Of a DNA stretch of 64,000 nucleotides, positions 22,754-47,941 are shown in pieces. Under the pieces are notes generated by a model. It ran no database searches. It had not been told where the DNA came from and was given only the letters and a program-made list of their open reading frames with translations. A program made the translations under genes and the position numbers. Source of the stretch: Myxococcota bacterium (lineage in GTDB: Bacteria > Myxococcota_A > SURF-8); the NCBI GenBank assembly GCA_965140415.1, contig OZ223209.1, positions 4,416,001-4,480,000 of the forward strand, read 5' to 3'. Each line of letters begins with the position of its first letter. Positions within the stretch are counted from its first letter, which is position 1.

Positions 22754-22764
22754 TCGAGCAAGCC

Positions 22765-25674: not shown

Positions 25675-25675
25675 A

Positions 25676-26479
25676 ATGAACGCGAGAAAGCAGCGGCACT
25701 ACATTCTGCGCAGCATCGTAGAAACACTGTTTCTTTTTCTCTGTATGACCGGGGCGGCCTTTGCGGCGCTACCGGGCGAGTGGCCCTCCCAGCCGAGAGA
25801 TTACGTAACCGACCGGGCAGGCATGATCGAAGCCGGTCATGAATCGGCGCTGAACGGACTGCTGAAACAGTTGGAGCAGAAAAGCGGCATTCAACTGCTG
25901 GTCGTGACGGTGCCATCGTTGGAGGGAGAGAGCAAGGAAGGCTATGCGCTGGCATTGGCCGAGCGTTGGAAACTGGGCCGCAAAGGTAAGGATGACGGCC
26001 TGCTCTTTTTACTGTCCCAAAAGGATCGCGTGTACCGTTTCGAGGTGGGATACGGATTAGAAGGCATCCTGCCGGATGGTCTGATGGGGCAGATCGGGCG
26101 TGAACGGCTGATTCCTTATCTCAAGCGCGGCGAAAGCAGCAAAGGCATCACAGCGGCAACACTGGCCATCGTGCAGGAAATCACTGCGGCCAAGAACATT
26201 TCTATTACCGGGATGCCCGAGCAACGGCGCGTCAAGCGAAAAAAGTCGAACATCGCCGGGTTGATTTTTTATCTGCTGCCTTTGATCTTCATGTTCGGAC
26301 CGCTGATCGGTCGGCGGAGACGAGTGAATGGCATGCGCACCTGGCGCTCGGGCAGGCGGGGGCTGTTCATCGGAGGGATGGGCGGCTTCGGTGGAGGACG
26401 TGGTTTCGGCGGTGGCGGTTCTTTCGGCGGCGGTCTGGGCGGCGGCTTCGGCGGCGGCGGCGCCGGTGGAAGCTGGTAA
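25676..26479 (+). CDS. TPM-domain membrane protein (YgcG-like)
   Basis: YVTDRAGMI, WKLGRKGKDDGLL, EVGYGLEGILPD, Gly-rich tail ending GGGGAGGSW. Confidence 0.92.
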   Translation: MNARKQRHYILRSIVETLFLFLCMTGAAFAALPGEWPSQPRDYVTDRAGMIEAGHESALNGLLKQLEQKSGIQLLVVTVPSLEGESKEGYALALAERWKLGRKGKDDGLLFLLSQKDRVYRFEVGYGLEGILPDGLMGQIGRERLIPYLKRGESSKGITAATLAIVQEITAAKNISITGMPEQRRVKRKKSNIAGLIFYLLPLIFMFGPLIGRRRRVNGMRTWRSGRRGLFIGGMGGFGGGRGFGGGGSFGGGLGGGFGGGGAGGSW

Positions 26480-26553
26480 GAAATCCGAGAGCTGATTGGT
26501 AAATTGGATAGAACGGTATAGGAAAAACCGAATTTTTCGATAGGAGCAAAAAG

Positions 26554-27105
26554 ATGAAACGGGCATATGTGATTGTTGTGGTTGGGCTTGTGTTGCTGAT
26601 GTTGAACGGTTGCGGCTATAACAAGACGATTGCACTGGAAGAAGGCGTAAGCGCGCAGTGGGCGCAGGTGGAGAACCAGTTGAAGCGCCGCTACGATCTG
26701 ATTCCGAATCTGGTGGAAACCGTAAAAGGGTACGCCACACATGAAAAGGAGCTTTTGACCGATATTGCCGAAGTGCGCAAATCCTATTTCGGTGCGAATG
26801 ACCGAGCTGGGAAAGTCAAGGCCGCGACTCAACTTGAAGGAATGCTGTCCAGACTGTTGCTGCTTAAAGAAACCTATCCGGACTTGAAAGCCAATCAAGG
26901 ATTTCTGAAGCTACAGGATCAATTGGAAGGAACGGAGAACCGTATCGCCGTTGAACGCAAACGTTACAACGACGCCGTGCGCGAACTGAACACCTACATT
27001 CGTGGTATTCCCGGAAAGTGGTGGGCGGATATGACCGGTGTGAAAACGGCGGAATACTTTGAGATCGCCGAAGCAGAAAAGGCCACGCCACAGGTGAAAT
27101 TCTAG
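26554..27105 (+). CDS. lemA: LemA family protein
   Basis: WAQVENQLKRRYDLIPNLVETVKGYA, YPDLKAN, LEGTENRIAVERKRYN. Confidence 0.95.
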   Translation: MKRAYVIVVVGLVLLMLNGCGYNKTIALEEGVSAQWAQVENQLKRRYDLIPNLVETVKGYATHEKELLTDIAEVRKSYFGANDRAGKVKAATQLEGMLSRLLLLKETYPDLKANQGFLKLQDQLEGTENRIAVERKRYNDAVRELNTYIRGIPGKWWADMTGVKTAEYFEIAEAEKATPQVKF

Positions 27106-32801: not shown

Positions 32802-35800
32802 CTAATCGCAGGGATCGTCTTTATCCTTTTTGTCATTATCCTTATCTTTGTCTTTTCCGCTGACCATGTCCCAGAAACCTTCTACGTTTTTCATGACTTT
32901 GCGGAAAGCCGGGCTCTTGTCCAGGAAGGTGACCGAGGCGATCTTGCGCATGCCGTGCGAGCCGTTGTGGCGGGCGTCGCCGCGCTTGTATCCGCTCAGT
33001 CCATCATACATCTGCCAGGCGGTGCCTGCCGGTCCCATGGCCGTTTGCATACCACCTTTGATCTGACCACCCGCAAAACTGGCCGCATTACCGGCTCCAC
33101 CTTTCAGTCCAAGCGGATCGCTGCATTGATACGGTTTGCCGTCACAGTACATGTAAGGTTCCAGCTTCAACTGCCAAACCGGATCGCGGCTGATGAACTG
33201 CCCGATTTCGGGATCGTAATAGCGGCTGCGCATGTAGTACAACCCGATTTCTTCCAACCATAACGCACCGGCAAAACGACGCGGCTGATCCGCTATCGCT
33301 CCGCTGGAGGCCAGCAGACGACCATAGGGATCGTAGCGATACCGCGCGACGCGATTACCGCTGTTGTTGAAGAGCGCACGCACGCTGCCGTTTGGATCGA
33401 TGAGCGCGTAATAGTTTGTATTTCCCTGCCGGATAACCGCCACGCCATCCAAACCCAGTGACGGCATATAGCTTCGAATCACATCACCGTTGTCGTCGAA
33501 TTCCGCCAACAGGACGTAATCGATCCACTGATAGCTGCGACTGCTGCCGTCCACATCGACGCGACTCAGCCGCTGCAAAGGATCGTAGGACAAGACAACC
33601 GTACTGTATGGCGACGCGGCGCTTTGATCGGTATATTTCTGCACCTGTAACAACTGCCCGATGGCATTGAATTCGTAGACCCAGCGCTCATTGCTGTTCT
33701 GATCGATGCGCTCTTTTCTTGCTCCGCTATCGGAGTAGCTGTAGTCGGCCAGATCGGTGCTCGTGACGCGCCAGTCGTCATCGTAAACGAAAGCACCGGC
33801 ATACGAAGATTGCTGGATGCGCCCGCCGTCGTCGTAAGCAAAGGTAACGGTTTCCGGCCCGGCCTGACTGGTGATGCGGCCATTGGCGTCGTATTGGAAA
33901 GCCAAGGTATCCAACGCCTGGGCATCGGATTCAATGCGCTTCGGCTCCCGATTTCCATTCTTGTAAGTATAGGTCAGATATCCGCTGTTGGCGTAGCTGG
34001 ACCAGCTCAAGTAGTCCACGCGGCGAGCGGCGTCCAGCGTGAGATATTCGGAAAGCACCCAGTCGCCGTTGCTATTGGAAATGTCGATGGAAGATAATTG
34101 TCCATATTCCACAACTGCGCGCACTTCCACGCCATCACCGGAGATCGTCTGATCGGTATCGCCATAGCCGCCGTGACTGAAATCCCAATGGGTATTGAAG
34201 CCGGTGTCGAGGCTCTGAATCTGCCCCGTTTCCGCATTGTAGGGAGAATTGAAGCTGGTGACTTGCCCGCTTGCTTTATGCGTGACGGTTTCGCTGACCG
34301 TGTGGTTTTCTTCGCCGCTGTAGTCGCGCGTCCATTCGATGCGATATTCCGGCGATTCCGCCAGCACCAGGTGGTGCCGGTCATTGTATTGATAGGTGGT
34401 GGTTGCACCATCAAGTGTCATACCGGTCAACAGATTGTTTTGATCGTAGCTATAACCAACCTGCTTGCCTGCGGCGTCGGTAACATTGGAAAGAAGCCGG
34501 TTGCCATTGTAGTTGTACTGGTCGGAGTGCCCCAGCGGCGTGGTGACGCCGCCGAGATTGCCGTCCGCCAGAATTTGAGAGGACCAGTCGTTGCCAAAGG
34601 GATCGGTGATGGTTTCCAGCAGATCCCGGCCCGACGTTTCACAGCCGTCGCAGGTCGCAGAGCGAGCGAGGGCGGCGGAAAACACAGACCCACCCGGCTC
34701 GGTGTAGGAGGTCATGACGTTGTTGTGGCTGTAGCCGTATTGGAACTGGCGACCGGCGGTATCCGTAAGTTGCGTGAGGTTTCCTGCTGCGTCGCGCTGC
34801 ATCACGATGTCGTAACCGAGCGGATCGGTGATATTGGTAATGTTACCGAACGCATCCGATGTCATGCTGTAGGTTTCGCCGCTGCTATCTTCCAAATCGG
34901 TCAACTGGCCATCGTCATCATAGTAGAAATAGGTGCTTTCGCCGTTGCAGTAATACTCGGTGTAATCGTCTTCCTCGTAGACACTGCAATATTCACTGCG
35001 GAAGTGATGCTCCTCTTCGTTCCACTCCTCATCGTAGGTGGAATTAGAAACTTCAACACCGTAGAGTTCCAGATGCACCAGGCGTCCCAGAGGATCGCGG
35101 GTCGCCTGGCTGATCTCTTGCTCCCCCTTGCGAACGGTGGCCGTGATCTGTCCGTTGAGAGGGTTATATGCACGGTTGATCTGTAGCTCATCACCATTTA
35201 GTCGATAACGGTCCGGCTGACCATTCAAGGCGTAATGAGTTTCATGCTTGTGGCCTTCGCCATCGATATAAGTGGCCCAGCAGTCGGCGCAGATGCCATC
35301 GGGTTGGGCGGCTTGCAATAAGCTGGTGAAAGAGCGAGTCTCACCGGTGTCCAGGCTGATTTGCGAGATGCTTCCAATGGTATCCCACTGATAGTCGATT
35401 TCTCCCGCGCCGCCGCTGCGTCCGGTCATGTGACCACTCTCGTCGTACTCGAACAGGGTTTCGTTTCCGTCCGCGTCACTGATGCGGGTCAACTGACCAT
35501 CGGCATCGACGGTGACCATGCGCGTGCGTCCCGCCGGATCGGTGATGCCGCTCAAGTATCCATTAGTATAACTGAATGTGGTTTCTTTTCCGAAACGGCT
35601 GGTGTAGCTGCTCAAGCGACCATCGGCATAACTGTATGTAGCCTGACGGCCTTTGCTGTCGGTGAGGTTGGTCAACTGCCCCTGGGCGTTGAAGTAGCGT
35701 GTTTCCCCTGCTCCGCTCATTCTGTAACCGCTGCCATCGGATTCGATGCGCAATGGCAGATCGGAAAAGATGCCGACCGAGTAATCACCGGGCACGAGCG

Positions 35801-38423
35801 AGAAGCGATAGTCATCGTTGCTGTAGGCGGCATAGAGCACCTCGCCTTGCGTATCGAACCCCACGCCCTCTATGATCTGATTTCCGAATTGGGTGACTTG
35901 TTCGAAACGGGTGTTTGCCAGTACGGACAGGATTCCTTGAGGCGAGATCCGAATCACTTTTTCGCCGGAGAGAATATAACTGTCGCCTTTGGGACCGCGT
36001 CGCATCAAAACGCGACTGTCATCGACAAAGGCTTCTTCCTTCATCACCACGCTTTCGTTCAATCCGGCGATATCGAAGCGACGCAACAGGTCTTCGGAGT
36101 AGAACAGGTAGTATATGGCGTGCTCGGCCTCATCGTAGGCCATCGTGGCGGGAATCTGGAATTCGGTCAGTTGCATCAACGGACTGGCTAAAAAAGTCGG
36201 TTCTGCGGTTGAAATATCCACACGGATCATCAGGGGGCGCGTGGAGAAGCTGCCATCTTCACCGTATACGATGCCTACACCCATCATCCAGATGTAGCCG
36301 TTTTTGTCGGCGATCATACCGGCTTCTGGATAGAGCACGTCGATGTTCGTCAGTTCGCCATCCAATTGGCTCATGACCTGTTGCATCATGTAGGTTTCGC
36401 CGATTGTGGAGAGCAACTCAATAGTATTTGGGTAGCTGATCCGATGTAACGCGGCATCGGAATCGACCGCCAGGATATCCTCGCCGTAGGGAATCAGATC
36501 GTAAACATCCAGGCCATCGGTTTCGAGAAGTTCGACCTGCCCCGCATTTTGCAGTGAATCGGCAATATAGATTTCCCCATCTTCATTGAGCAGGTACAGG
36601 TGCCCCTGGCTGTCGAATTCGATCGATACCAGTTTCTGACCGATGTCGTCGGGCAGATCCAGGCCCTCGGTAGTAGGGAGACCGGTCATAAAGACTCTCG
36701 GGCGACGGTCGCCGCGTCGCCACAACCCTAGCCCCAGTTGGTCGTTGAATTGCAACGATTCCTGCACGCTGATTTCCCAGCCTGTACCGAAGGGATTGTC
36801 GGCAGGACTATCCACGATGGCCGGAACGGCTTTGCGCACGGAAAATGGCAGCGCTTCTCGCGTGGGAACGCCGGAATCTTCCAGACCGCCGCCGCCGAAT
36901 ACGGAGGCGGACATGTAGGTGGAACGCTCGAACTTGGTGATTTCTACCGCCGCCGGAACGATACCGTCGGCTACCGTTGTGCCATCCGGCGTTTTGTTCT
37001 TAAAGCGCGCAGCGATCAGAAACTCTCCACCTTCACTTGCGACGGTAGACAATTCCTGGCGATTTCCGGCAAGATCCACCGTGGCACTGATGCGCTCGAT
37101 GCCGTCGGTGCTGTTAGCGTCGATGGGCACCGCAACGTCGATCTCACCCGCCGCACGACCGCTGTTGTACATCAAATGCAGGGTGCTCTGCTCGTTATCT
37201 TCCCTGTAGCTGCTGGCAGGATGATAAAGGGAGAGCTGGCCGCTGATATCGTCTACGATAGAGGAACCGCGCGTTCCCTTTTCGCAGTCGTCCTTGTCGT
37301 TGTTACCGTTACTGGCCTGATCGCGCGGATCGACCGGTGCGTTTAGATCGTATGGTGAAAAGTGGTTGGTCGTAAACTCCAGCCACTGACCATCTTCGGA
37401 AACCACCGCCATGGTGCTCGGTTCCCAGGCACCTTTATCGCGATTGTAATAGCCGACCGGAACGCTGTATCCCGGCGGGAAGCCGTTGACGTTCTCCTGC
37501 CGGATGACGACCGGTTGCTCGAACCGCACACCCTCTGGCGAGGCTTCAAAGGCCTGCGTCCATCCGCTGGAATCGGGAAGCTGACCGGGCAGGCTGCGAT
37601 ACTCCGGAAAACTGATGGCCGAGACTTCGACCTCGCGCTTAACCGCATTTCCCGTCGCTTCAATGGCGATATCTCCAACACTGTTTTCCAACGCGCCACC
37701 GCTTTCGGGACTGAAAGTCGCGGTTTTACTGTCGGTCTGAACCAGATAGGCCGGGGTAAGCGAGTGATGCCGACCGGATTCCGCCGTAACCCAACGCTGG
37801 GCCAGCGTATAGCCTTCGTGCTCCAGCGTGATCAACGTGCGACCGGCTGGCACGGGCAGGGAAAATTGACCGGATGCATCACTGGTAGCCACGCCGCTGA
37901 CATTGCGCACGAAGACCTTGACACCCGAGAGCGGCACCTCGCTGCCTTCCGCAAAAACCGAACCGTGCACCGTAGCGGCATTCGCCATACTCTGGATACC
38001 GGTTTCCGCATACGTTACCGAAACGGATTCCGATATGGTTTCAAAACCGTTTCCATCTTTTACGGATACCCGAATGCTGTTTTCGCCCTCTTCCATCGGA
38101 ACGTAGCGCCGATACTTGCCGGATGAAAGCTCGGTAGCCGGATAGTAGCGTTCGCCGTTGGCGATCCAGGCATCGATGGGAGCATCGCAGTCCGTTACCG
38201 AAAAGACAACGAGTAATTCTTTTTCGTTGGTCTGATCGGGTAGATCCTCTATCGTGATGCCACCGAAACAGGGGCCTCCGGGACGCTCATCGCTGTAGTC
38301 GCCATCAACACCGTCGCCATCGGCGTTATTGTCTCCTCCTCCACCACAACCAGGCGCAGCCCAGATCATGAAAAAAGTGAACGTGAAAAGCAGAGCAGCG
38401 AAACGCCGTGAAAATGTAGTCAT
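32802..38423 (-). CDS. teneurin-like RHS/YD-repeat lipoprotein
   Basis: Lipobox APGC, carboxypeptidase-regulatory-like domain, HFS motif, propeller-like region, YD repeats, RHS core GLYYMRSRYYDPEIGQFISRDP..PYQCSDPLG; alternative start GTG 38435. Confidence 0.9.
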   Translation of the reverse strand: MTTFSRRFAALLFTFTFFMIWAAPGCGGGGDNNADGDGVDGDYSDERPGGPCFGGITIEDLPDQTNEKELLVVFSVTDCDAPIDAWIANGERYYPATELSSGKYRRYVPMEEGENSIRVSVKDGNGFETISESVSVTYAETGIQSMANAATVHGSVFAEGSEVPLSGVKVFVRNVSGVATSDASGQFSLPVPAGRTLITLEHEGYTLAQRWVTAESGRHHSLTPAYLVQTDSKTATFSPESGGALENSVGDIAIEATGNAVKREVEVSAISFPEYRSLPGQLPDSSGWTQAFEASPEGVRFEQPVVIRQENVNGFPPGYSVPVGYYNRDKGAWEPSTMAVVSEDGQWLEFTTNHFSPYDLNAPVDPRDQASNGNNDKDDCEKGTRGSSIVDDISGQLSLYHPASSYREDNEQSTLHLMYNSGRAAGEIDVAVPIDANSTDGIERISATVDLAGNRQELSTVASEGGEFLIAARFKNKTPDGTTVADGIVPAAVEITKFERSTYMSASVFGGGGLEDSGVPTREALPFSVRKAVPAIVDSPADNPFGTGWEISVQESLQFNDQLGLGLWRRGDRRPRVFMTGLPTTEGLDLPDDIGQKLVSIEFDSQGHLYLLNEDGEIYIADSLQNAGQVELLETDGLDVYDLIPYGEDILAVDSDAALHRISYPNTIELLSTIGETYMMQQVMSQLDGELTNIDVLYPEAGMIADKNGYIWMMGVGIVYGEDGSFSTRPLMIRVDISTAEPTFLASPLMQLTEFQIPATMAYDEAEHAIYYLFYSEDLLRRFDIAGLNESVVMKEEAFVDDSRVLMRRGPKGDSYILSGEKVIRISPQGILSVLANTRFEQVTQFGNQIIEGVGFDTQGEVLYAAYSNDDYRFSLVPGDYSVGIFSDLPLRIESDGSGYRMSGAGETRYFNAQGQLTNLTDSKGRQATYSYADGRLSSYTSRFGKETTFSYTNGYLSGITDPAGRTRMVTVDADGQLTRISDADGNETLFEYDESGHMTGRSGGAGEIDYQWDTIGSISQISLDTGETRSFTSLLQAAQPDGICADCWATYIDGEGHKHETHYALNGQPDRYRLNGDELQINRAYNPLNGQITATVRKGEQEISQATRDPLGRLVHLELYGVEVSNSTYDEEWNEEEHHFRSEYCSVYEEDDYTEYYCNGESTYFYYDDDGQLTDLEDSSGETYSMTSDAFGNITNITDPLGYDIVMQRDAAGNLTQLTDTAGRQFQYGYSHNNVMTSYTEPGGSVFSAALARSATCDGCETSGRDLLETITDPFGNDWSSQILADGNLGGVTTPLGHSDQYNYNGNRLLSNVTDAAGKQVGYSYDQNNLLTGMTLDGATTTYQYNDRHHLVLAESPEYRIEWTRDYSGEENHTVSETVTHKASGQVTSFNSPYNAETGQIQSLDTGFNTHWDFSHGGYGDTDQTISGDGVEVRAVVEYGQLSSIDISNSNGDWVLSEYLTLDAARRVDYLSWSSYANSGYLTYTYKNGNREPKRIESDAQALDTLAFQYDANGRITSQAGPETVTFAYDDGGRIQQSSYAGAFVYDDDWRVTSTDLADYSYSDSGARKERIDQNSNERWVYEFNAIGQLLQVQKYTDQSAASPYSTVVLSYDPLQRLSRVDVDGSSRSYQWIDYVLLAEFDDNGDVIRSYMPSLGLDGVAVIRQGNTNYYALIDPNGSVRALFNNSGNRVARYRYDPYGRLLASSGAIADQPRRFAGALWLEEIGLYYMRSRYYDPEIGQFISRDPVWQLKLEPYMYCDGKPYQCSDPLGLKGGAGNAASFAGGQIKGGMQTAMGPAGTAWQMYDGLSGYKRGDARHNGSHGMRKIASVTFLDKSPAFRKVMKNVEGFWDMVSGKDKDKDNDKKDKDDPCD

Positions 38424-38560
38424 TATCAACCCCACGCAATTGTTTCTCTAAATGGATTATCCCACGGTTTGCATCTTACCGACACCCGTTAGATTGTCAA
38501 CGCCTGAAATTATTCAAGTTATTTTTAGGTGAGAAGCAAAATTGTACGTTGTATCTGATC

Positions 38561-38680
38561 ATGTAGGGGAAGGTGTAGCGAGTGAAACAAGCGGAGCCCC
38601 CACAAAGAAAGAGGTGAACCTGAATTCGCCGAGAAAACGGGGAGTTCCGTTTGCTAACGCTCACTTCCCTCTCCTCTATG
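38561..38680. repeat. long imperfect hairpin, REP-like inverted pair
   Basis: ggaaggtgtagcg pairs with cgctcacttcc and aagcggagcccc with ggggagttccgttt; begins with GTAG. Confidence 0.55.
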
Positions 38681-38739
38681 TCTGCTAGTTGATCATTCAC
38701 GCAGATTTCCGACAAATGCACACTTAAAAATTCCTGCCC

Positions 38740-40377
38740 TTATTTCATCGATTCGAGAAGCAACTCGCAATCGACGAGCGGCTGCCCGGCTGGGTTCTTG
38801 AACGGCGACCAACAATATTCCAGCACCAGACCCAAGCTGTCCGATCCTAACCAATATTGTTCCACCGTTTTCGCATCGGTTTCGCTGGTGGCCGGTATCC
38901 AGTCATACTCGCCATCATCAAGCGCGGCATCCCACAAATTCCAATTCGGGAATTGCGCGTATTGATCCACAGCCCTGGAAATAAAGCCTTGAACTTCATC
39001 CACTTCGGTAGCCGTCAAGGGATAGCCGCTCGCGGCGGCTTGGATGTAATTGATGGCCATATCCCTGAACCAACGCCCCTGCGTATGACTGACCTCTTCC
39101 AGGCTCATCGTGCGATCCCGCTCGAAACGTTCTTCAAGTCCCTGCAACATGCGCAGAGCCAATTCATTTTTCCCATTCAACAACGCCCAGCGAATACTGG
39201 CGATATGAAACGCGCGCATGATGTGAGCATTGGGAGCGTTGTTTTCGATGGATAGCTTTTCGTAGGTCAGATCACCGCCGAAAGGCGTACACTGCAAACC
39301 CTGCTCATCGCCGTAAGCCATCAATGCAGAAGCCAGCTTCGCCTGGCATTCGGCATCTGGGAAAATGGCATCCCAGGCCACAAACGAAGCCAGATCGCCG
39401 GTGTCCGCTTCCTCCGGTCCCTCATCGATCCCCGGCAGATACGGCGTGCCGTCATCGCGCTTCGATCGGATGTTGTATCCATGATCGACGATATCCTGAA
39501 CAAACAGAACCAACAGATCATACGATTCGCTACAGGCTTCCCGAACGGATTCGTCATCCGCGCGTTTCGCAGCATACAGCATGGGGATGGAGACTTCGAA
39601 CAGATAGCCCAAGCCGTCTTTCGAACGGGTATTGGTGACCCAGACCTCACCCCAGTAAGGATTGTTTACATAGTTGAAACGTGAGCAATTCCAGCGATCA
39701 TAGGAGAAAAACCAGTTCGAATAATCCACGGCCTTGGAGTAACCGTCGTGAGTTGTGTAATCGTGATTGAAAGTGATGACGTTTCTGGTCATCAAATGAT
39801 GAACCGAGTCGTTTTCATCATACACCATTCCCAGCATGGTCTGGGAAATTCCCTTGCAATATTGCTCGGATAGCTCTCCCATTACGTCATCGCCGGTCAG
39901 CAGATAGCCACCCAAAGCCGAAGATAAAATCGTGGAATTGCCTTTTAAGATATTGTGTCCGCCGTGCTGCTCGGAATAATTGTGGACCATCGTTACAAGA
40001 TCGCCGCTTTTTTCCGCGTGAGAGTCCGTCCACCACAATCGATAATCCCGCTTGCCGGTAGATGCATCCACACCGTGACTCATACGCAACAGCCAGTCGA
40101 AATATTTCTGATCTACATAGAAATCCGAAAGTTTTTGAGTAAAGCTCGCCAGTTCCTCTTGATTCTGCGCTTGCCCCTCATCCATCCGCTCGAAACTCAA
40201 ATCAAAAGATTCCGGCAGACCGTCATCGAATCCATCGGATTCCGAGTCCGCCAGTTCCGATCCGTCAAGATCGCCATCCACTGCCGAAGAATCCCCATCA
40301 TCGCTGCAACCCAATGTTGCAAAGACCATCATACAGACCAACAATAGAACCAAAGCGAATTCCTGATGATTCATCAT
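38740..40377 (-). CDS. lipoprotein of unknown function, paralog of 19138..20889
   Basis: Lipobox TLGC, DGD linker, conserved motifs shared with the paralog. Confidence 0.8.
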   Translation of the reverse strand: MMNHQEFALVLLLVCMMVFATLGCSDDGDSSAVDGDLDGSELADSESDGFDDGLPESFDLSFERMDEGQAQNQEELASFTQKLSDFYVDQKYFDWLLRMSHGVDASTGKRDYRLWWTDSHAEKSGDLVTMVHNYSEQHGGHNILKGNSTILSSALGGYLLTGDDVMGELSEQYCKGISQTMLGMVYDENDSVHHLMTRNVITFNHDYTTHDGYSKAVDYSNWFFSYDRWNCSRFNYVNNPYWGEVWVTNTRSKDGLGYLFEVSIPMLYAAKRADDESVREACSESYDLLVLFVQDIVDHGYNIRSKRDDGTPYLPGIDEGPEEADTGDLASFVAWDAIFPDAECQAKLASALMAYGDEQGLQCTPFGGDLTYEKLSIENNAPNAHIMRAFHIASIRWALLNGKNELALRMLQGLEERFERDRTMSLEEVSHTQGRWFRDMAINYIQAAASGYPLTATEVDEVQGFISRAVDQYAQFPNWNLWDAALDDGEYDWIPATSETDAKTVEQYWLGSDSLGLVLEYCWSPFKNPAGQPLVDCELLLESMK

Positions 40378-40592: not shown

Positions 40593-40985
40593 ATGCGTGT
40601 TCTACATGCAAACAAAGGTCGAACGGTCTGCCTGCTGATGGCCACGACCCTGTTCTGGTTGTCCATGTTTTTGGACTTCTTCGCTTTCTCGCATGTCTGG
40701 AGCGTCGAACGAAACACTTTCATCCACCTTCGCAGTTCTCAAACCTGTCTGCAAGCGCATGAGGATGGAGACAATCTCCACTCCGCGAGAGCTAACCAGA
40801 ATACATCTTACAACGAATGTCCGTTTAACGGGTACTGGCGTCACTTCAACGCTCAAAGCGAGCTTTCAGCAATCGTTTGTTACCTCGATACGAATGAAAT
40901 CATCAAAATCCCCATTTCAAACGATCGTATCGACCACTCGCGTCTTTTCAATTTCGCACCCAAAAATTCTCCGCCACTCGGCTAA
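40593..40985 (+). CDS. DUF2946-like small protein (possible metal-sensing leader)
   Basis: N-terminal hydrophobic helix, His/Cys residues (ECPF), C-terminal APKNSPP. Confidence 0.55.
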   Translation: MRVLHANKGRTVCLLMATTLFWLSMFLDFFAFSHVWSVERNTFIHLRSSQTCLQAHEDGDNLHSARANQNTSYNECPFNGYWRHFNAQSELSAIVCYLDTNEIIKIPISNDRIDHSRLFNFAPKNSPPLG

Positions 40986-41104
40986 GCTTCGTCCATTCTC
41001 CCAAGAATCATCAAGTAAAACATTCTCCCGGTAGGATTCAATATCCGAGCCGGTAAGAATTGAAGGTTTCTTTCCATTCACCACGAGCCCAATGGAACAA
41101 CCCG

Positions 41105-41611
41105 ATGTCGGATTCAAAGAAGAACAGATTCGGGGGCGTTTTGATTTTTTCTGCGCTCCTGCTCGTTCCTCTTGCGGCAGTGGCAGGCTGGATCGTTTTC
41201 AAGAATCAAGACCCGTCTGACGTCGAGATGAAAACCATCGAGCGCTGGCGCAATAGTGAAGTAAAAACCGTAGCTTCCGACTGGAGTTCGGGTGAAGACA
41301 CCTACGAACGCTTCTGTAGTTACAAGCCCGATGGGCAACTCGTTGGATGCTGGATCGAAAAGAACGGTTCACCCTGGAGCGGCAACATGGTGAGTTGGTA
41401 TCAGATTCACACGAAAGCCAAGCCGGACCGGGGTTACGGCATTCCGAAAGCGATTCAATCCTATGAAGAAGGTACGCCACATGGGACGTGGCAGTCCTTC
41501 TACGTTACCGGAGCCGTGATGACGGAAGTGGATATTGAAAACGGAAATCGTATCGAAACGCGCATGTTTTCCCCGGATGGAAAATTGCTTAGACGCTTGA
41601 AGATGAAGTAA
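41105..41611 (+). CDS. membrane-anchored MORN-variant repeat protein
   Basis: TM, then YEEGTPHGTWQSFYVTG and MFSPDGKL. Confidence 0.65.
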   Translation: MSDSKKNRFGGVLIFSALLLVPLAAVAGWIVFKNQDPSDVEMKTIERWRNSEVKTVASDWSSGEDTYERFCSYKPDGQLVGCWIEKNGSPWSGNMVSWYQIHTKAKPDRGYGIPKAIQSYEEGTPHGTWQSFYVTGAVMTEVDIENGNRIETRMFSPDGKLLRRLKMK

Positions 41612-41625
41612 AGGGAATCAGGATC

Positions 41626-43476
41626 ATGAATAAGCGAATCAAAGCCTCTTTAATATCCATCTCTACCGATATCTTCCTGATCGCTACCAAGAGTACCTTG
41701 GCAGCCTTGTCGGGAAGCGCAGCTTTGCTGGCAGACGCCTACCACTCGCTATCGGATTTATTCGTGTCTTTAGCCGTTCTTTCCGGTTCGGCTTTCCGAA
41801 GCTGGATGGAAAAACGCGAGCTTCTGCAATCCACACAAGCGGAGTCTGCCGAGAACGAAAATAGTTTGGAATTACAAGAGGTTTCACCAGCGAAAGCAGA
41901 AGAAGACGAAGATTCACCACCCGCCAAACCCGGATACTGGGTCGAGGCGGGAATTACCTATATTATCTCCCTTATTATCCTGTATCTCCCTTATGAAATC
42001 ATTTCGGGTATTTCCAAGCAAAAGAAATACGATCTGGAATATACCTGGCTTGCGATTATCGGCGTTATTGCCTGTATCGTAATTACGTACTTCATTTCCC
42101 GCTACAAACTGCTCGCCGGTCGGGAGGTGGATTCGCCTGCCCTCGTTGCAGATGGCTACCACAGCCGAATGGACATGTTCACCTCCGTGGCCGTGTTGTT
42201 TTCCATGCTTGGCCAGATTATCGGAATCAAACTGGACCCACTGGTAGCAGTTGTAATCGCCGTCATGATCGGCATCGTCGGTCTGGAATTGTTCATTACT
42301 TCCGTTGTTGCGCTGGCCAGAAAATCGGGGCTGAAGCGGCTTTCTCTCTTTGCCTGGCTGTACGAACAAACCGAGCGAGTTTTTACATTCCTTGCCGGAT
42401 TGTTCGTCGGCAAACAACTGAAGCTTTCCGATTTACACCTGGCCGAGCGTCTCTCGCCTGAGCGCTGGTATAGTCACCGCCGCCTGGCTGTGCTTGTTGT
42501 CGTATTTGTCTCCGCATATTTTCTTAGCGGATTGACCATGATTCGACCGGAGGAAACCGGTGTAAAGCTGCGCTTCGGTCACATCGAAAACGATCATCTG
42601 CAACCCGGTCTGACTTACCGCCTTCCCTGGCCCTTTGAATCGATCAAGCGTATTCGAATGCAGGAAATCCGCCGGGTTGAATTCGGCTTCAGGACCGATG
42701 ATCGACTCAACACCAGCATTTCTCCGACTTTGTGGGAAACCAAACACGGAACGAGGGGCTACAAGAAAAAGAAAAAGGAATCCATCACCTTGACCGGAGA
42801 TGAAAACATCATCGATATCAGCCTGGTTCTACACTACCGACCAACCAACCCCATAGACACCCTTTTCCGGGTCAACCGGATGGACAACGTCCTTCGAGGT
42901 CTGCTGGAATCGTCTCTGAGAAAAACAATCTCAGTTCGAAAAGCGGACAGTTTACTGGTGGAAAATCGTCAGGAAGCCTTGAACGCCATTTTAGACGATG
43001 TCCGGGCGCATATCAAACAACTCGACCTTGGAGTGGAAGCGATGGCGCTCTACTGCCACGACTTGCATCCGCCGCTTGAAGTTGTCGGCGCGTTTCGAGA
43101 TGTCTTTTCCGCCCGAGAGGAAAAGATTCAGCTATTGAACAATGCTGAAACCCATCGCAATACCGCGCTTCCAGAGGCGCGCTCGAAAAGCTATCAGAGC
43201 CTTCACGAGGCGCAGGCCGATCGTATCGAACGACGCGAAAAGGCCATTGGGGATGCAAAGAACTTTGCACTCGTTTCGAAAGCATATCGCCGTCAACCGA
43301 AATTGACCGCTTACCGCATGTTTATAGAAATGGCTGAAATCGGAATGGCCGGAAAACGGAAAATCATTGCCGATCCCGAAGTCAACCGGGGCGGATACAG
43401 ACTATGGATGTTTGCACCTGAAAACGGCAATGCATTGAACGATCTGAAAGGATTGAAGAAAGGAGTAAACCGATGA
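41626..43476 (+). CDS. cation diffusion facilitator TM domain fused to an HflK-type SPFH domain
   Basis: SAALLADAYHSLSD and ALVADGYHSRMD (CDF HxxxD motifs), LDPLVA; then GVKLRFG..PGLTYRLPWP, LTGDENII, HPPLEVVGAFRDVFSARE. Confidence 0.88.
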   Translation: MNKRIKASLISISTDIFLIATKSTLAALSGSAALLADAYHSLSDLFVSLAVLSGSAFRSWMEKRELLQSTQAESAENENSLELQEVSPAKAEEDEDSPPAKPGYWVEAGITYIISLIILYLPYEIISGISKQKKYDLEYTWLAIIGVIACIVITYFISRYKLLAGREVDSPALVADGYHSRMDMFTSVAVLFSMLGQIIGIKLDPLVAVVIAVMIGIVGLELFITSVVALARKSGLKRLSLFAWLYEQTERVFTFLAGLFVGKQLKLSDLHLAERLSPERWYSHRRLAVLVVVFVSAYFLSGLTMIRPEETGVKLRFGHIENDHLQPGLTYRLPWPFESIKRIRMQEIRRVEFGFRTDDRLNTSISPTLWETKHGTRGYKKKKKESITLTGDENIIDISLVLHYRPTNPIDTLFRVNRMDNVLRGLLESSLRKTISVRKADSLLVENRQEALNAILDDVRAHIKQLDLGVEAMALYCHDLHPPLEVVGAFRDVFSAREEKIQLLNNAETHRNTALPEARSKSYQSLHEAQADRIERREKAIGDAKNFALVSKAYRRQPKLTAYRMFIEMAEIGMAGKRKIIADPEVNRGGYRLWMFAPENGNALNDLKGLKKGVNR

Positions 43477-44357
43477 AGAAAATACTGGTTGCACTCGGAG
43501 CATTAACGATATTGGTTTACCTGTTGAGCTTTTCGTTCGTCGTGTTGGACGAAACGGAAATGGGAATCGTGACCACGTTCAACAAGCCCACTCAGATCAT
43601 TAAGGAAGCCGGGCTGATCGTGAAATGGCCGGACCCCATCCAATCGGTAATACGACTCGACCGACGACTGCAAGCCCTGGATTCCAATCTTGGAGAATAT
43701 CTCACCCGCGACAAAAAAAACCTGGTTGCAAGCAGCTTTATTCTCTGGCGCATCGACAATCCAGAACGCTTCATCCAAAGTGTCCGCAGTAAAAAGAACG
43801 CTGAAAAGCGCCTTGCCGATCTGGTTGGCTCCGAATTGGGAGTGGCGCTGGGAGAACATCCGCTACACGATTTCCTGACAACGGAAGAAAGCGGAAGCCA
43901 AATCACCGAAATCTCCACACATGTGTACAAACAAACGAAAAACGCGGCTTTGCAGGACTTTGGAGTCGAACTGGCAGATGTACAGATTCGACGACTGGGC
44001 TTTCCATCTCAGAACCTGCGCTCCGTTTACGACCGCATGAAAGCCGAGCGCGAACGAATCGCCAAAAAATACCGCGCAGAGGGCGAAGAAGAAGCCTCGA
44101 AAATCCGTTCCCAGACCGACAAGGAAGTTCGGGATCTGCTTGCCGAAGCCTATCGAGATGCACAGATCACCAAAGGCCAGGGAGAAGCGGAAGCCATTCG
44201 CATTTATGCCGAAGCTTTTTCGAGCGATCCGAAGTTCTACAAATTGACGCGCACGATGGAAGCGTACCGGAACATGCTCGATGATAAAACGACCTTGATT
44301 CTTTCCGCCGATTCACCGTTGTTCAAGTATCTCGAAACACCACCGGAGGGTCGCTAG
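43473..44357 (+). CDS. hflC: HflC-family SPFH protein
   Basis: LTRDKKNL, VYDRMKAERERIAKKYRAEG, GEAEAIRIYA..DPKFY. Confidence 0.9.
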   Translation: MKKILVALGALTILVYLLSFSFVVLDETEMGIVTTFNKPTQIIKEAGLIVKWPDPIQSVIRLDRRLQALDSNLGEYLTRDKKNLVASSFILWRIDNPERFIQSVRSKKNAEKRLADLVGSELGVALGEHPLHDFLTTEESGSQITEISTHVYKQTKNAALQDFGVELADVQIRRLGFPSQNLRSVYDRMKAERERIAKKYRAEGEEEASKIRSQTDKEVRDLLAEAYRDAQITKGQGEAEAIRIYAEAFSSDPKFYKLTRTMEAYRNMLDDKTTLILSADSPLFKYLETPPEGR

Positions 44358-44359
44358 CC

Positions 44360-45292
44360 ATGCCGAACGATCCCATCATCGAACATACTTTCCGCAATGC
44401 GAAAAGAATCGTGTTGGCAGCCTGCCTGCTGGCCATAATCGTCTATTTCGCAACAGGAATCTATTCGGTAACTCCGACCCAGACCGGAGTCATCAAGCGA
44501 TTCGGGGTAATCGTCAACGACGACATCTCTCCGGGAATTCACTACCACTGGCCGTGGCCTATCGAACTTGTTGCACGCCCGAATACCAAGGAAATCCGAA
44601 GCATGAAGCTTGTTTTCGATCAGACGACCATCTCGAAAGAGCACGCCGGAGAAGGTGCATTGTTAACCGGTGATGAAAACCTGGTTTTGTTGACCTTGCT
44701 GACCCAGTACACCATCGATAATCCACGGCAATATCTGACCGTCTTTTCCAATCCCGATGAATTACTGAAACGCCTTATTCTGGCAGCCTGCGTTCGATAC
44801 ATGGCAGGCACTTCCGTCGATGATATTTTGACCACCGGTCGTAATAACCTTCAGAGAACGCTGAAGAGCGAAATCCAGAAAAGCTCTAACCGTTTCGGAC
44901 TGGGGCTGCGCATCGTCTCCATTCAGGTCAAAAATATCGAACCGCCTACTAGCGTCGCCCACGCCTTTAAAGACGTCGCTTCCGCACGGGAAGACATGCA
45001 CAAAATGCTGCAAAATGCGAACGGAGAAAAGAACCGCCGTCTCCCGGAAGCCCGCGCAGATGCCGAGAGTCTGCGCCAGCAGGCCGAGGCCTATGCAAAT
45101 GAAACCGTTCAGAAAGCGAAAGGCGACGCCGACCGCTTCCTTTCGACCTGGAAGGAATATCGCAAAGCAAAAAGTGTGACCGCTCAGCGAATTTATTTCG
45201 AAACAGTCGAATCCATCATGACCAAAGTCAAAAAGCAGATCATCAACCCTCGCGCCGAGCGCAGACTCGGTCAGGGAGGCATGTATCAATAG
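44360..45292 (+). CDS. hflK: HflK-family SPFH protein
   Basis: GVIKRFG..PGIHYHWPWPIE, LTGDENLV, PPTSVAHAFKDVASARED, AKGDADRF. Confidence 0.9.
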   Translation: MPNDPIIEHTFRNAKRIVLAACLLAIIVYFATGIYSVTPTQTGVIKRFGVIVNDDISPGIHYHWPWPIELVARPNTKEIRSMKLVFDQTTISKEHAGEGALLTGDENLVLLTLLTQYTIDNPRQYLTVFSNPDELLKRLILAACVRYMAGTSVDDILTTGRNNLQRTLKSEIQKSSNRFGLGLRIVSIQVKNIEPPTSVAHAFKDVASAREDMHKMLQNANGEKNRRLPEARADAESLRQQAEAYANETVQKAKGDADRFLSTWKEYRKAKSVTAQRIYFETVESIMTKVKKQIINPRAERRLGQGGMYQ

Positions 45293-45295
45293 GAA

Positions 45296-45904
45296 ATGAC
45301 GATGTCCCCAATACAATGGCGCTTTCTCGTACTGTTATTTCTATGTCTCGTTACAATTCCAACATCTTCGGCCCGGGCGCATCCGCATATCTTTGTGGAC
45401 GCGCGTGTAACCCTTCTTTTCGACGAGCAGGGATTAGCCGGTTTCCGGCAGGAATGGACCTTTGACGAAATGTTCGGAGAGTTCATCCTGGAAGATTACG
45501 ATGCCAATAAAAACAAGCGCTTCGAAGATAAAGAAGTTTTAAAGATCAAAGCGGAAGCCTTTGACAACCTTAAAGAAAGCGACTATTTCCACATCGTTCA
45601 ACTCAACGGCAAACCCTTTGCTGTAAAATATGCGACGGACTTTTCCGTGCAGTTTAAAAATGAGCGTGTGGTGTACACCTTCACGGTTCCCTGCCACATG
45701 AAAGTGGCAGCGAAATCCACTTTAGACATTTCCCTGTCCCTTTCCGATAAAACGATTTACACCGATCTCGTTTTTACGAAAGACAGCCCGAAATCCGATG
45801 GAAAATCAAGTCTGTTCAACACTCAACACAAACTGGATGATGGCGTGCAGCCAAGCGGTCAAGTTCTGGCCCAAACCCTGCATATCAAGGTGACACGCAA
45901 ATGA
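45296..45904 (+). CDS. DUF1007 family periplasmic protein
   Basis: Signal peptide followed by AHPHIFVD, WTFDEMF. Confidence 0.88.
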   Translation: MTMSPIQWRFLVLLFLCLVTIPTSSARAHPHIFVDARVTLLFDEQGLAGFRQEWTFDEMFGEFILEDYDANKNKRFEDKEVLKIKAEAFDNLKESDYFHIVQLNGKPFAVKYATDFSVQFKNERVVYTFTVPCHMKVAAKSTLDISLSLSDKTIYTDLVFTKDSPKSDGKSSLFNTQHKLDDGVQPSGQVLAQTLHIKVTRK

Positions 45905-46836
45905 AAACCTGTGCCGTCATTGCGATCCTGCTCCTGTTTTCAATGCTCTTTGCCATGGAAGTAGAAGCAGGAAACCCGTTCCTCTCCAAGAAGAAAACGG
46001 AACAAGTTACTCCGCAACACGAAACAGAACCCACAGAAACTCTCGTCACGAGCAAAATGCCGGAGTGCTTTGCCCCGATCCTGCGAACAGTCAACGACTG
46101 GCAGAAAGAGTTGAAGCAACAATTGAGCACGTTTGCACGCGATATGAAGACCAATCCTTTCGGCAAATCCTTCCTTCTTTTTCTGCTGCTTTCTTTTGTT
46201 TATGGAAGCGTTCACGCAATTGGTCCCGGGCATGGCAAATCGGTGGTAGTCAGTTATTTTCTGAATCGGCCAGGAAAACTCTGGCAGGGAATCGCGATGG
46301 GGCATCTTATTACCGCCGTTCACGTCGCCTCCGGAGCGCTTGTTGTGCTGGTAATGGCATTGATTTTAGATACGACCCGATTGACGGATTTCGAAGAGGC
46401 AAGCCCGAACCTGGAGGCCATAAGCTACATCCTGGTGATTCTGATCGGGTTGTATCTGATCGTTCATACAATATTGGACCTGAAAAGGCGCAGTTGGGAA
46501 AACACGGAGGAATCAACATCCGGCAATCTGCGAGGCATATTGCTCACCGCCATTGCTACCGGGCTGGTTCCCTGCCCCGGTGCAGCACTGATTCTACTTT
46601 TCTCTGTAATTCTCGGCGTATTCGCTCAGGGACTGGTCGCGATGCTGTTCATTGCATTGGGAATGGGGCTAACCACCAGCCTCTTCGCAATAATCGCTAT
46701 TACCTCGCGCCGAACGGTACTAAACGTTGCACGACGTAACGAAAAAGTTTTTATCGGTGCATACTCGATCTTGTCCTTCGGCGGAGCATTTACGATTATC
46801 TTGCTGGGTTCGGTAATGCTTGCAGGCCTGCTGTAG
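45901..46836 (+). CDS. nickel/cobalt transporter, RcnA/HoxN-like
   Basis: YGSVHAIGPGHGKSVV, GLVPCPGA. Confidence 0.88.
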   Translation: MKTCAVIAILLLFSMLFAMEVEAGNPFLSKKKTEQVTPQHETEPTETLVTSKMPECFAPILRTVNDWQKELKQQLSTFARDMKTNPFGKSFLLFLLLSFVYGSVHAIGPGHGKSVVVSYFLNRPGKLWQGIAMGHLITAVHVASGALVVLVMALILDTTRLTDFEEASPNLEAISYILVILIGLYLIVHTILDLKRRSWENTEESTSGNLRGILLTAIATGLVPCPGAALILLFSVILGVFAQGLVAMLFIALGMGLTTSLFAIIAITSRRTVLNVARRNEKVFIGAYSILSFGGAFTIILLGSVMLAGLL

Positions 46837-46886: not shown

Positions 46887-47591
46887 TCAGCCGATGGGCT
46901 CGCCCAGGGTTTGAATTACCATCTCGATATATTCGGCAATGGCTTTGGCATTTTCGCTGTTTTCCTCGAATTGCAAACCAACCAGAATCCGTTTGGTGTT
47001 CATATCCACCCGCTTCACGACGCACTCCAGGTTGTCAATCGCTTTACCGTTGGGAAGAGTGAAGGAAAGTCGGATCGATTCTTCTATTCTGGGTGGGTCC
47101 ACCATCTGAACCAGCGCACCGCTGGAACTCAAATTCAAGATGGTATTGCCACTATCCTGTGAATCGTTAAGCCGAAAAGGAATGACCATTTGAATTCGTG
47201 GTGAACGACGTAGGGATATTTCTTCGATACGACTGGGATATTTCAGGAAAGTCAGGTTCAACGGCGAGCCGATGGTTCGGAAAATTGTTGTCTGAAACCC
47301 GAAAACACTGCCCTCGCACATGTAGCGGACGGCCATCTGGTTCTGCCCACCATAATTGACCAGCATCCCGTTAATGCGGGGAGTCATCAGAATCAGGTAT
47401 TCACCACGCAAATATCCCAATAGCTTGGTTTTCCACTTGTCCTTGTCCGACCGACCCAGCGGTTGCATAAACATATCCATACCGACCTGAAACGAAGTCA
47501 GAAAGGAAGTGTCATGCTGTTCGTGTAAGCGTTTAGGAGCTTTGGCGGCTTCGTAGAATCGCCCAAGGGAATCCTGATTATTGTGGCTCAT
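46887..47591 (-). CDS. PilZ-domain c-di-GMP receptor (YcgR/flagellar-brake-like)
   Basis: RxxxR motif (RRSPR) and NLSSSGA, with an N-terminal PilZN-like domain. Confidence 0.88.
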   Translation of the reverse strand: MSHNNQDSLGRFYEAAKAPKRLHEQHDTSFLTSFQVGMDMFMQPLGRSDKDKWKTKLLGYLRGEYLILMTPRINGMLVNYGGQNQMAVRYMCEGSVFGFQTTIFRTIGSPLNLTFLKYPSRIEEISLRRSPRIQMVIPFRLNDSQDSGNTILNLSSSGALVQMVDPPRIEESIRLSFTLPNGKAIDNLECVVKRVDMNTKRILVGLQFEENSENAKAIAEYIEMVIQTLGEPIG

Positions 47592-47941
47592 CGTCTGTAC
47601 TTCCCCAGTTTTCACCCGCCGATTGGATTTGCCTAAAACCTCTCGGCGGAATTCTACATCGAGTAAAATTATAAAAGGATATTACCTTAAACGCAAGTTA
47701 TTGAACGGTTATATTGACGAATGAGAATGAGCCATTCGGAAAAAACAGCAGCTTATCTGTAACAATTACAATTTGAGAGAGCAACTAACCGACTTTTAAC
47801 AGAGCAACCTCCCCTTTTCGTGTAGACTGCAACCACCTAACACGCATGGTTCTTTATTATCTTTTCCCTGCCGGTCATCCCTATGGATGGCCGGTTCTCT
47901 TTTCCTAAGATCGAATAACCCAACAAAATATTTCCTAAACA

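Follow-up and report, generated by a model that had tools for sequence, protein, structure and literature searches.

We analysed a 64,000-nucleotide (nt) stretch of a Myxococcota bacterium genome, referred to below as the window, in which all coordinates count from the first letter. The subject is a six-gene operon built around a protein that joins a cation diffusion facilitator (CDF) transporter to an HflK-type SPFH subunit. Six head-to-tail open reading frames (ORFs) on the + strand span 41105-46836, and the spacings between them are, in order, 14 nt, a 4-nt overlap, 2 nt, 3 nt and a 4-nt overlap. The first gene, orfA (41105..41611), encodes a small protein; its N-terminus is a membrane anchor or signal sequence, and its repeats weakly resemble MORN variants. 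It is followed by the CDF-SPFH fusion of 616 amino acids (aa; 41626-43476), which carries Cation_efflux and Band_7 domains, and by an HflC-like protein of 294 aa (43473-44357; Band_7, TIGR01932), the start of which overlaps the fusion stop by 4 nt. Then come a plain HflK-like protein of 310 aa (44360-45292; Band_7, TIGR01933), a DUF1007 protein of 202 aa (45296-45904; PF06226) and a NicO-family permease of 311 aa (45901-46836; PF03824), the start of which overlaps the DUF1007 stop by 4 nt. Family names were assigned by Pfam and NCBIfam to five of these six genes. We refer to the fusion as K', to the HflC-type protein as C and to the plain HflK-type protein as K. A first-pass annotation of this DNA had described six tightly coupled genes at 41105-46836, which the + strand coordinates and spacings bore out, and had named a CDF-HflK fusion, HflC, HflK and DUF1007 among them, all of which Pfam and NCBIfam upheld.

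The CDF-HflK fusion protein and its family

Two domains were identified in the fusion by Pfam, Cation_efflux (PF01545) at 2.7e-19 over approximately residues 1-230 and Band_7 (PF01145) at 7.9e-16 over residues 305-510. The CDF membrane domain, with six helices, occupies residues 1-232 (41626..42321, + strand), and the HflK-type module occupies residues 284-616 (42475..43476, +). Between them lies a basic linker of residues 233-283 (42322..42474, +), in which the secondary structure from AlphaFold2 (AF2) has one helix (241-261) at a predicted local distance difference test score (pLDDT) of 49-69. The fusion scored 150.8 bits on the HflK model TIGR01933, just under the cut-off of 159.4, and 68.9 bits on the NCBIfam CDF superfamily model, below the cut-off of 82.35. 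ZT_dimer, the C-terminal cytoplasmic domain of CDFs, gave no Pfam match in the fusion at E <= 0.01.

The AF2 model of the fusion, built on a 24-sequence alignment, had a mean pLDDT of 78.7 and a predicted template-modelling score (pTM) of 0.45. It placed the CDF helices at residues 3-29, 32-76, 104-131, 140-168, 171-199 and 204-232, mostly with pLDDT 80-94, and it built the HflK module as a membrane helix (284-300), an SPFH domain (303-481) and a 90-residue helix (484-574). Foldseek matched the C-terminal half to E. coli HflK chains (7vhq_E, 4.3e-16; 9cz2_XA, 4.5e-16) and the N-terminal half to YiiP (8f6h_B, 1.6e-6; 5vrf_A, 8.5e-6, with a root-mean-square deviation of 4.1 over 237 columns). 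In a phmmer search against PDB sequences, the relatives of the fusion were HflK chains only, with E. coli 7vhp_E at 5.6e-27. The termini of CDF proteins lie in the cytoplasm; HflK starts inside the cell, with its SPFH domain on the periplasmic side. The fusion would be topologically coherent because the CDF termini and the HflK N-terminus lie on the same, inner side, and the linker, judged from these known topologies, would be cytoplasmic. Its length and sequence vary among the 24 aligned fusions.

A homologue search with the whole fusion gave 138 matches, and the best 120 of the 138 all carry both PF01145 and PF01545. A second fusion subfamily came to light through a conjugative plasmid of Aquibium oceanicum; when the fusion of that plasmid was used as the seed, 1732 matches were found, of which the best 120 were all two-domain proteins. 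We also searched the CDF half alone (residues 1-300) against 1.84 billion representatives (50% identity), and 2131 proteins were found at E <= 0.001. The HflK-type region, detected by its own profile, was present in 104 of the best 150 representatives from this CDF-half search, and 27 of the remaining 46 were shorter than 290 residues. These results show that CDF-HflK fusions form a large conserved family and are not peculiar to this locus. The databases name such fusions 'FtsH protease activity modulator HflK' or 'membrane protease subunit HflK', and no publication describing an HflK/SPFH-CDF fusion was found in full-text literature searches.

The residues of the transporter half were highly conserved. 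D37, H40 and D44 on transmembrane helix (TM) 2 and D176, H179 and D183 on TM5 were invariant in 24/24 aligned fusions, the D-H-D/D-H-D pattern was present in 115 of 118 window-type homologues, and the H..D/H..D core was nearly universal across 257 fusions, the Aquibium-type fusions having S-H-D with [S/G]-H-D instead. We take the H-x3-D pairs on TM2 and TM5 to be the CDF transport-site positions, and zinc-type CDFs typically have H-D/H-D sites. The H-D/H-D site of the fusion suggests ions of the Zn/Co/Ni/Fe type, and from its residues the transporter half looks functional. The six-helix membrane domain and the H-x3-D pairs on TM2 and TM5 are shared with the YiiP/FieF CDFs. In contrast to these, the fusion has the linker and the HflK module in place of the C-terminal cytoplasmic dimerisation/sensing domain, and it has an extra conserved Asp one turn before each His.

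In the SPFH domain of the window-type fusions we also observed an insert, at 42700-42800 in the window (residues ~359-392), with the conserved motif L-W-E-x2-H-x3-G-Y. W370 was present in 110 and H374 in 90 of the 118 window-type homologues, and the insert with this motif was absent from 121/121 Aquibium-type fusions. The insert would be a conserved periplasmic His/Trp patch.

The K'-C-K gene trio

A genome scan by one TM5 peptide pattern recovered at least 17 fusion loci (L001-L017), one decayed locus (L018) and 62 ordinary CDF loci. Together with the window and the Aquibium plasmid, these at least 17 genome loci make up 19 fusion loci, and the counts out of 19 given here and below hold among the matches listed. 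We found that the order K'-C-K was complete in 16 of the 19; two of the other three are cut by a contig end and consistent with the order, and one ends inside the fusion gene. At L018 (10001-10817), the CDF part of the decayed fusion gene is frame-shifted and only the last ~90 HflK residues match, and no HflC or HflK gene comes after it.

The HflC-like protein of the window matched Band_7 at 1.8e-26 and scored 198.4 bits on TIGR01932 (cut-off 134.4), and it shares 80% identity with the corresponding protein at L001. Similarly, the plain HflK-like protein matched Band_7 at 1.3e-18 and scored 206.5 bits on TIGR01933, above the cut-off of 159.4. On the same TIGR models E. coli HflK scored 415.6 bits and E. 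coli HflC 496.1 bits, and the scores of the trio are less than half of these. The subunits of the E. coli HflK/HflC cage with FtsH (7vhp, 7wi3, 9cz2) share with the trio the N-terminal membrane helix, the SPFH domain and the long helix, and in E. coli, as in the window, K and C genes are paired side by side. However, the window has three subunits in the order K'-C-K and E. coli two in the order K-C, the trio is without the hfq-hflX linkage of E. coli hflKC, and K' bears a six-helix transporter where E. coli HflK has its tail. This tail is unmodelled in E. coli, the structural models beginning at residue 79 according to the available part of PMC12048511.

Maximum-likelihood trees of the SPFH modules were made by quick searches on sets of 68, 80 and 37 rows, and in the 80-row set additions brought the ordinary HflK/HflC pairs to 11 in total and included two of the plasmid trios described below. 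The 68-row tree split the K types from the C types with support 100. The 18 trio HflCs formed one group in the 68-row tree (support 97) and in the 80-row tree (support 84), and in the latter the trio HflCs and the plasmid-trio HflCs together formed one group with support 86. Among the K types of the 68-row tree, the 34 trio members stood together, apart from the 8 ordinary HflKs (support 94), and the 16 plain trio HflKs grouped together (support 92). The 11 ordinary HflKs made up one side of a branch without trio members in both the 80-row tree (support 94) and the 37-row tree (support 98). In these trees, the trio members fall outside the ordinary HflK/HflC group; an SPFH phylogeny against housekeeping HflK/C had been proposed in the first-pass annotation, and it set the trio apart from all 11 ordinary pairs.

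We further found that the same four subgroups were recovered for K', C and K in the 68-row tree, and that these subgroups mix phyla. The subgroup of the window contains metagenome-assembled genomes of Myxococcota together with the gammaproteobacteria Gynuella and Thiothrix. Since all three genes have the same order and the same four subgroups, the trio is a unit, and the tree pattern is as expected for a trio that was inherited and transferred as a whole module.

Five plasmid trios without a recognisable CDF were also identified, in Burkholderia ubonensis, Klebsiella aerogenes, Rhizobium tumorigenes, Paraburkholderia sprentiae and Burkholderia sp. FXe9. Their first 'HflK' is 568-672 aa long with a polytopic N-terminal part, and it is followed by an HflC-type gene and an SPFH gene. 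These trios resemble that of the window in the K'-C-K order, in the polytopic N-terminus of the first gene and in their coupling to a metal pump, and in the 80-row tree they group with the trio lineage and not with ordinary HflK/C (support 86-94). They differ in the N-terminal part of the first protein, which gave no Pfam family and no alignment to the CDF part of the fusion profile, and they score below the TIGR cut-offs. With the fusion trio of Aquibium, trios are present on conjugative plasmids of Klebsiella, Burkholderia and Aquibium.

Metal-transport genes, other neighbours and the rest of the window

The neighbours of the trio were surveyed by running Pfam on 103 flanking ORFs of the 17 genome loci and by using the annotation of the Aquibium plasmid. 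Metal transport genes lay beside the trio in 7 of the 19 fusion loci. In the window they are the DUF1007/NicO genes downstream of the trio. FeoB lies directly upstream in L005, L006 and L007, accompanied by FeoA in L006, and two HupE/UreJ genes and a DUF1007 gene lie upstream in L009 of Thiothrix caldifontis. L012 has a P-type ATPase beside the trio, and on the Aquibium plasmid the trio is accompanied by genes for an HMA-domain P-type ATPase, PCu(A)C and SCO, and Nramp lies upstream. In the plasmid trios without a CDF, a P-type ATPase gene came next after the third SPFH gene in 5/5 cases and overlapped it by 4 nt in 4/5; in one case the ATPase was split into two ORFs. Taken together, these results show that metal-pump genes recur beside trios.

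At L009 (115-1282), the HupE/UreJ match runs over the ORFs 353-745 and 758-1282 and an overlapping frame 115-432, a pattern that suggests two short paralogues or a frame shift. We also observed that ordinary plasmid hflK-hflC pairs neighbour cation/proton antiporters: nhaA overlaps hflC on the Vibrio sp. dhg plasmid (L083), an antiporter gene comes directly after hflKC, beside MerR and HMA genes, on the Methylophaga thalassica plasmid (L091), and another lies 1 kb downstream of hflKC on a Pontibacillus plasmid (L087). SPFH pairs beside ion transporters may be a wider theme.

Other genes adjoin the trios as well. Large PPIC-type peptidyl-prolyl isomerases (PPIases; 520-677 aa) directly adjoin the trio in 6 of the 19 loci (L004, L012, L013, L014, L015 and L081), all of which belong to one subgroup. 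Genes for thioredoxin-like (AhpC/TSA), DUF1573, HtrA, M16 peptidase, CcmF, SCO and PCu(A)C proteins were also found near trios.

The DUF1007 protein of the window matched PF06226 at 8.1e-39 with 134.2 bits (gathering cut-off 27), and it has a signal peptide and then the conserved motif A-H-P-H-[IV]-F-[VI]-D. The permease matched PF03824 at 2.4e-16 with 60.3 bits (gathering cut-off 27.7), over profile positions 3-113 of 287 only. It is polytopic, with the motifs HAIGPGHGK and PCPGA, and among its 241 homologues the best 120 all carry PF03824; the databases name some homologues nickel/cobalt transporters and others exporters. The AF2 model of DUF1007 (4-row alignment) reached a pLDDT of 58.8, too poor for a fold search, and neither DUF1007 nor NicO had a relative among the PDB sequences. 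Two natural DUF1007-NicO fusions, P0308 (472 aa) and P0310 (497 aa), have a domain order equal to the gene order here; the DUF1007 protein of the window is 42% identical to their N-terminal halves, and the motif is common to all. A DUF1007 and NicO-type pair, BP3079/BP3078, is also present in a metal-uptake operon of Bordetella pertussis, with a TonB-dependent receptor and a SitABCD-like importer and beside a Fur-family regulator, according to the available text of PMC9858536. The same two families are thus adjacent in a metal-acquisition operon there, where both proteins are uncharacterised as far as that text goes; the B. pertussis pair accompanies a TonB-dependent receptor and an ABC importer, whereas the pair of the window comes after the SPFH trio. 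The natural fusions and the B. pertussis pair argue that DUF1007 and NicO belong together, and DUF1007 would be a periplasmic, metal-binding partner of the NicO permease. For both a fusion homologue (P0009, 47% identical) and a NicO homologue (P0257, 44%), the longest contig is given as 38,156 bases; the two may share a contig and thus be a second case of a trio with NicO.

Two labels of the first-pass annotation held in part. The permease had been called 'RcnA/HoxN-type', which agrees with its Pfam family; on the RcnA-type model NF007454 it scored 36.5 bits against a cut-off of 195, so this subfamily was not reached. The product of orfA had been called a 'MORN-like membrane protein', and its N-terminus is indeed hydrophobic. 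Its MORN_2 (PF07661) match stayed below the gathering cut-off (E = 0.012, 16.1 bits versus 29.6), and the Atlas lead of 0.88 (level 0.9) pointed to a cluster with MORN_2 in 59% of its members. As the genes were confirmed and the MORN and RcnA labels proved weak, the observation stands with these two labels softened. The start of orfA was taken as the ATG at 41105, an alternative TTG at 41060 being likewise open, and among 17 related genome loci a relative of orfA was found upstream of the trio in L003 only, as a weak match (tblastn 1e-11).

A comparable arrangement is known from Pseudomonas aeruginosa, in which PA2439, PA2438 and PA2437, annotated as HflK/HflC-family genes, adjoin the P-type ATPase importer gene hmtA, and in which the three genes were induced 9.0-, 10.6- and 14.4-fold in a znuA mutant (PMC4542158, available text). 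Three consecutive HflK/HflC-family genes and a metal transporter are found in one operon in the window too. The PA2438 and PA2439 proteins rise on zinc depletion, while the PA2437 protein appears in one data set only, with a change that is not significant, in the available part of PMC11761036. In a gel-shift assay, purified Zur bound the PA2439 promoter (bioRxiv 10.1101/2021.05.28.446167, available part). The same genes are PA14_33070, PA14_33080 and PA14_33110 in the accessible text of PMC9431628 and PaFlo5-7, a three-SPFH operon, in that of PMC13086221. The latter describes a patchy distribution, which its authors read as horizontal transfer, coexistence with an ordinary hfq-hflX-hflK-hflC locus and mutant phenotypes that were only slight in the conditions used; neither 'cation' nor 'hmtA' occurs in that paper. 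No Pseudomonas record was found among the matches of our homologue and plasmid searches.

Upstream of orfA, an ORF at 40593..40985 (+) may encode a small membrane protein of 130 aa, counted from its ATG, with a hydrophobic N-terminus. It ends 119 nt before orfA and gave no Pfam family at E <= 0.01, and both its reality and its membership of the operon are uncertain. Rfam at its gathering threshold gave 0 matches in the window, 0 inverted repeats were found upstream of the operon, and promoter and terminator scans gave sites no commoner than in shuffled sequence. Downstream, a gene for a YcgR-like PilZ protein (46887-47615, - strand; PilZNR 8.3e-13, PilZ 8.1e-12) converges on the operon end, with 50 nt between both stop codons. 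On the other side, an ORF of 1877 aa at 32802-38435 (-) carries RHS repeats (1.3e-39) and a CarboxypepD_reg-like domain, and upstream of it on the same strand are ORFs of 74 aa and 545 aa without a family (38497-38721 and 38740-40377); this locus, directly upstream of the operon, may be of the polymorphic-toxin type. Further away, an ORF of 249 aa without a family, a TPM_phosphatase-domain protein and a LemA protein stand in a row at 24925-27105 (+), a recurrent membrane gene cluster, and two adjoining ORFs of 621 and 614 aa with a 10-nt overlap at 20909-24609 (-) gave no Pfam family at 1e-5.

A proposed SPFH assembly for metal traffic

Based on these results, we favour, with moderate confidence, an accessory and horizontally mobile three-subunit assembly of the HflK/C type that carries a tethered CDF and works in metal traffic. 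K' carries a complete six-helix CDF metal/proton antiporter domain at its N-terminus and lacks the usual CDF cytoplasmic C-terminal domain. K' and K would share the HflK positions of a ring alternating with C, as in the E. coli cage, so that each K' would tether its CDF through the ~50-residue cytoplasmic linker in or at a ring-fenced patch of membrane. The CDF would move a divalent transition metal out of the cytoplasm, to the part of the periplasm below the SPFH dome or next to it, and the scaffold may confine, stabilise or gate the metal flux. In this genome the module would be co-translated with a separate two-part permease, consisting of periplasmic DUF1007 and membrane NicO, and through this co-translation the whole operon would handle transition-metal traffic across the inner membrane.

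Several points weigh against this proposal. Where the CDF sits with respect to the ring is purely what we infer, and the arrangement of the domains in the AF2 model carries no weight because of the pTM of 0.45. The reference set of the trees is small, its 11 ordinary pairs being all from plasmids or chromids and none from Myxococcota. In an approximately unbiased (AU) test on the 37 rows (LG+G4), a tree with plain trio HflK as sister to ordinary HflK was not rejected (p = 0.372), and because of this value we confine the claim to the trio lying outside the ordinary group and claim no intra-trio duplication of K' and K. The likeness to the P. aeruginosa operon rests on gene-family names and operon layout, and homology between them is a lead only. 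In the examined flanks of 8 of the 19 fusion loci there was neither a metal gene nor a PPIase. Relatives of DUF1007/NicO gave no tblastn match at 1e-5 in the 17 related genome loci, so this linkage is local; by Pfam, a DUF1007 gene lay beside the trio elsewhere in Thiothrix caldifontis only. Upstream of the operon no riboswitch was found, and a Zur-box-like pattern, which may differ from that of the host, had 0 matches in the window. The remaining points concern FtsH and are given with that alternative below.

The first-pass annotation had proposed an HflK/C-type set dedicated to metal transporters and had made conserved linkage to metal genes its test. The fused transporter, the trio as a unit, the recurrent pumps and the separation in the trees speak for the dedication. 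Linkage to metal transport recurred, in 7 of the 19 fusion loci and 5/5 plasmid trios; the particular linkage to DUF1007/NicO was not conserved. The interpretation of the first-pass annotation was thus supported in part.

Alternatively, the trio may be the organism's working HflK/HflC modulators of FtsH, with a ring that houses FtsH as in E. coli and a CDF that is a passenger, a regulated substrate or a coupler of FtsH activity to metal status, FtsH being a zinc protease. We consider this unlikely, though it is a live rival and several findings favour it. HflC (198.4 bits versus 134.4) and plain HflK (206.5 versus 159.4) pass the NCBIfam equivalog cut-offs, so an FtsH-linked role keeps some likelihood; but the scores are less than half of those of E. 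coli HflK and HflC. Both fold and sequence match E. coli HflK from FtsH complexes, and the databases name the fusions modulators of FtsH protease activity. At the column of E. coli R193 (numbered on our E. coli translation; R432 region of the window fusion) Arg is present in 8/8 ordinary HflKs and is retained in 14/18 fused K' and in 0/16 plain K. K' and K have diverged unequally at this column. Mutation of R141, E142 or R185 in E. coli HflK lowers FtsH pull-down (PMC13220708, available part); we rejected these residues as a discriminator of FtsH binding, for they vary among the 8 ordinary HflKs aligned. 'Arg191' in the available text of PMC12048511 could not be placed, the E. coli translation having Arg at 185 and 193.

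The lack of an ftsH neighbour does not separate the FtsH alternative from our proposal. As the first-pass annotation had said, the window holds no recognisable ftsH or hflX: Pfam scans of 52 of its ORFs (21 of them with no family assigned) detected neither an AAA/Peptidase_M41 nor an HflX-type family, and a crude scan for Walker-A followed by HExGH gave no match. However, ftsH lay beside hflKC in 0/8 annotated ordinary hflKC loci fetched, so its absence from the window is no evidence. What stands against an FtsH role is the position of the trio members in the trees, apart from the 11 ordinary HflKs and likewise from the ordinary HflCs, the grouping of the Thiothrix and Gynuella trios with Myxococcota trios and not with gammaproteobacterial HflK/C, the carriage of trios by conjugative plasmids of Klebsiella, Burkholderia and Aquibium, and the coexistence of the P. 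aeruginosa three-SPFH operon with ordinary hflKC (PMC13086221, available text).

The trio could instead be a scaffold for the folding or maturation of envelope proteins and not for transport, in which the CDF would be a metal sensor or a supplier to periplasmic clients and DUF1007/NicO a mere neighbour that shares the promoter. The PPIC-type PPIases in 6 of the 19 loci, the thioredoxin-like, DUF1573, HtrA, M16 peptidase, CcmF, SCO and PCu(A)C genes nearby and the non-conserved DUF1007/NicO linkage are in line with this. However, the PPIase link is limited to one of the four subgroups, and no PPIase was found in that of the window. Moreover, a fully conserved transport site is expected of an active transporter no less than of a sensor, and the 4-nt overlaps between SPFH and P-type ATPase genes in the plasmid trios point to the pumps themselves. 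We therefore regard a pure maturation scaffold as quite doubtful. It is very improbable that the fusion reflects an error of annotation or assembly, or gene decay, in a gene order without functional meaning, since despite the broken copy at the related locus L018 the frame is open for 616 codons, the architecture is identical in hundreds of independent sequences, the junction residues are conserved among the aligned fusions and the AF2 model is confident on either side of the junction.

Within the proposed metal-traffic assembly, a bolder version is conceivable, which we put forward as a long shot. The K'/C/K dome might be an FtsH-independent metallation chamber, into whose small periplasmic volume metal would be pumped by the CDF or, in the sister operons, by their co-translated P-type ATPase. 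In this private pool, shielded from competing metals, exported proteins would be loaded or folded with the aid of PPIases, SCO/PCu(A)C and thioredoxin-like proteins from neighbouring genes. If true, this would give SPFH cages a specific biochemical task and a client bound to them covalently.

The role of SPFH cages (HflK/C, prohibitins, stomatins and flotillins) towards the proteins inside them is poorly understood. The fusion is a client transporter of well-understood mechanism that is welded to a cage subunit and kept in hundreds of lineages. It also reveals a systematic annotation problem, as the label 'FtsH protease activity modulator HflK' is given to a protein of which half is a transporter. 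For P. aeruginosa, the trio suggests an explanation of the unexplained zinc-regulated genes PA2437-PA2439. Altogether, the fusion would offer a tractable system for the effect of an SPFH ring on a transporter, with metal content, metal tolerance and transport in proteoliposomes as the read-outs.

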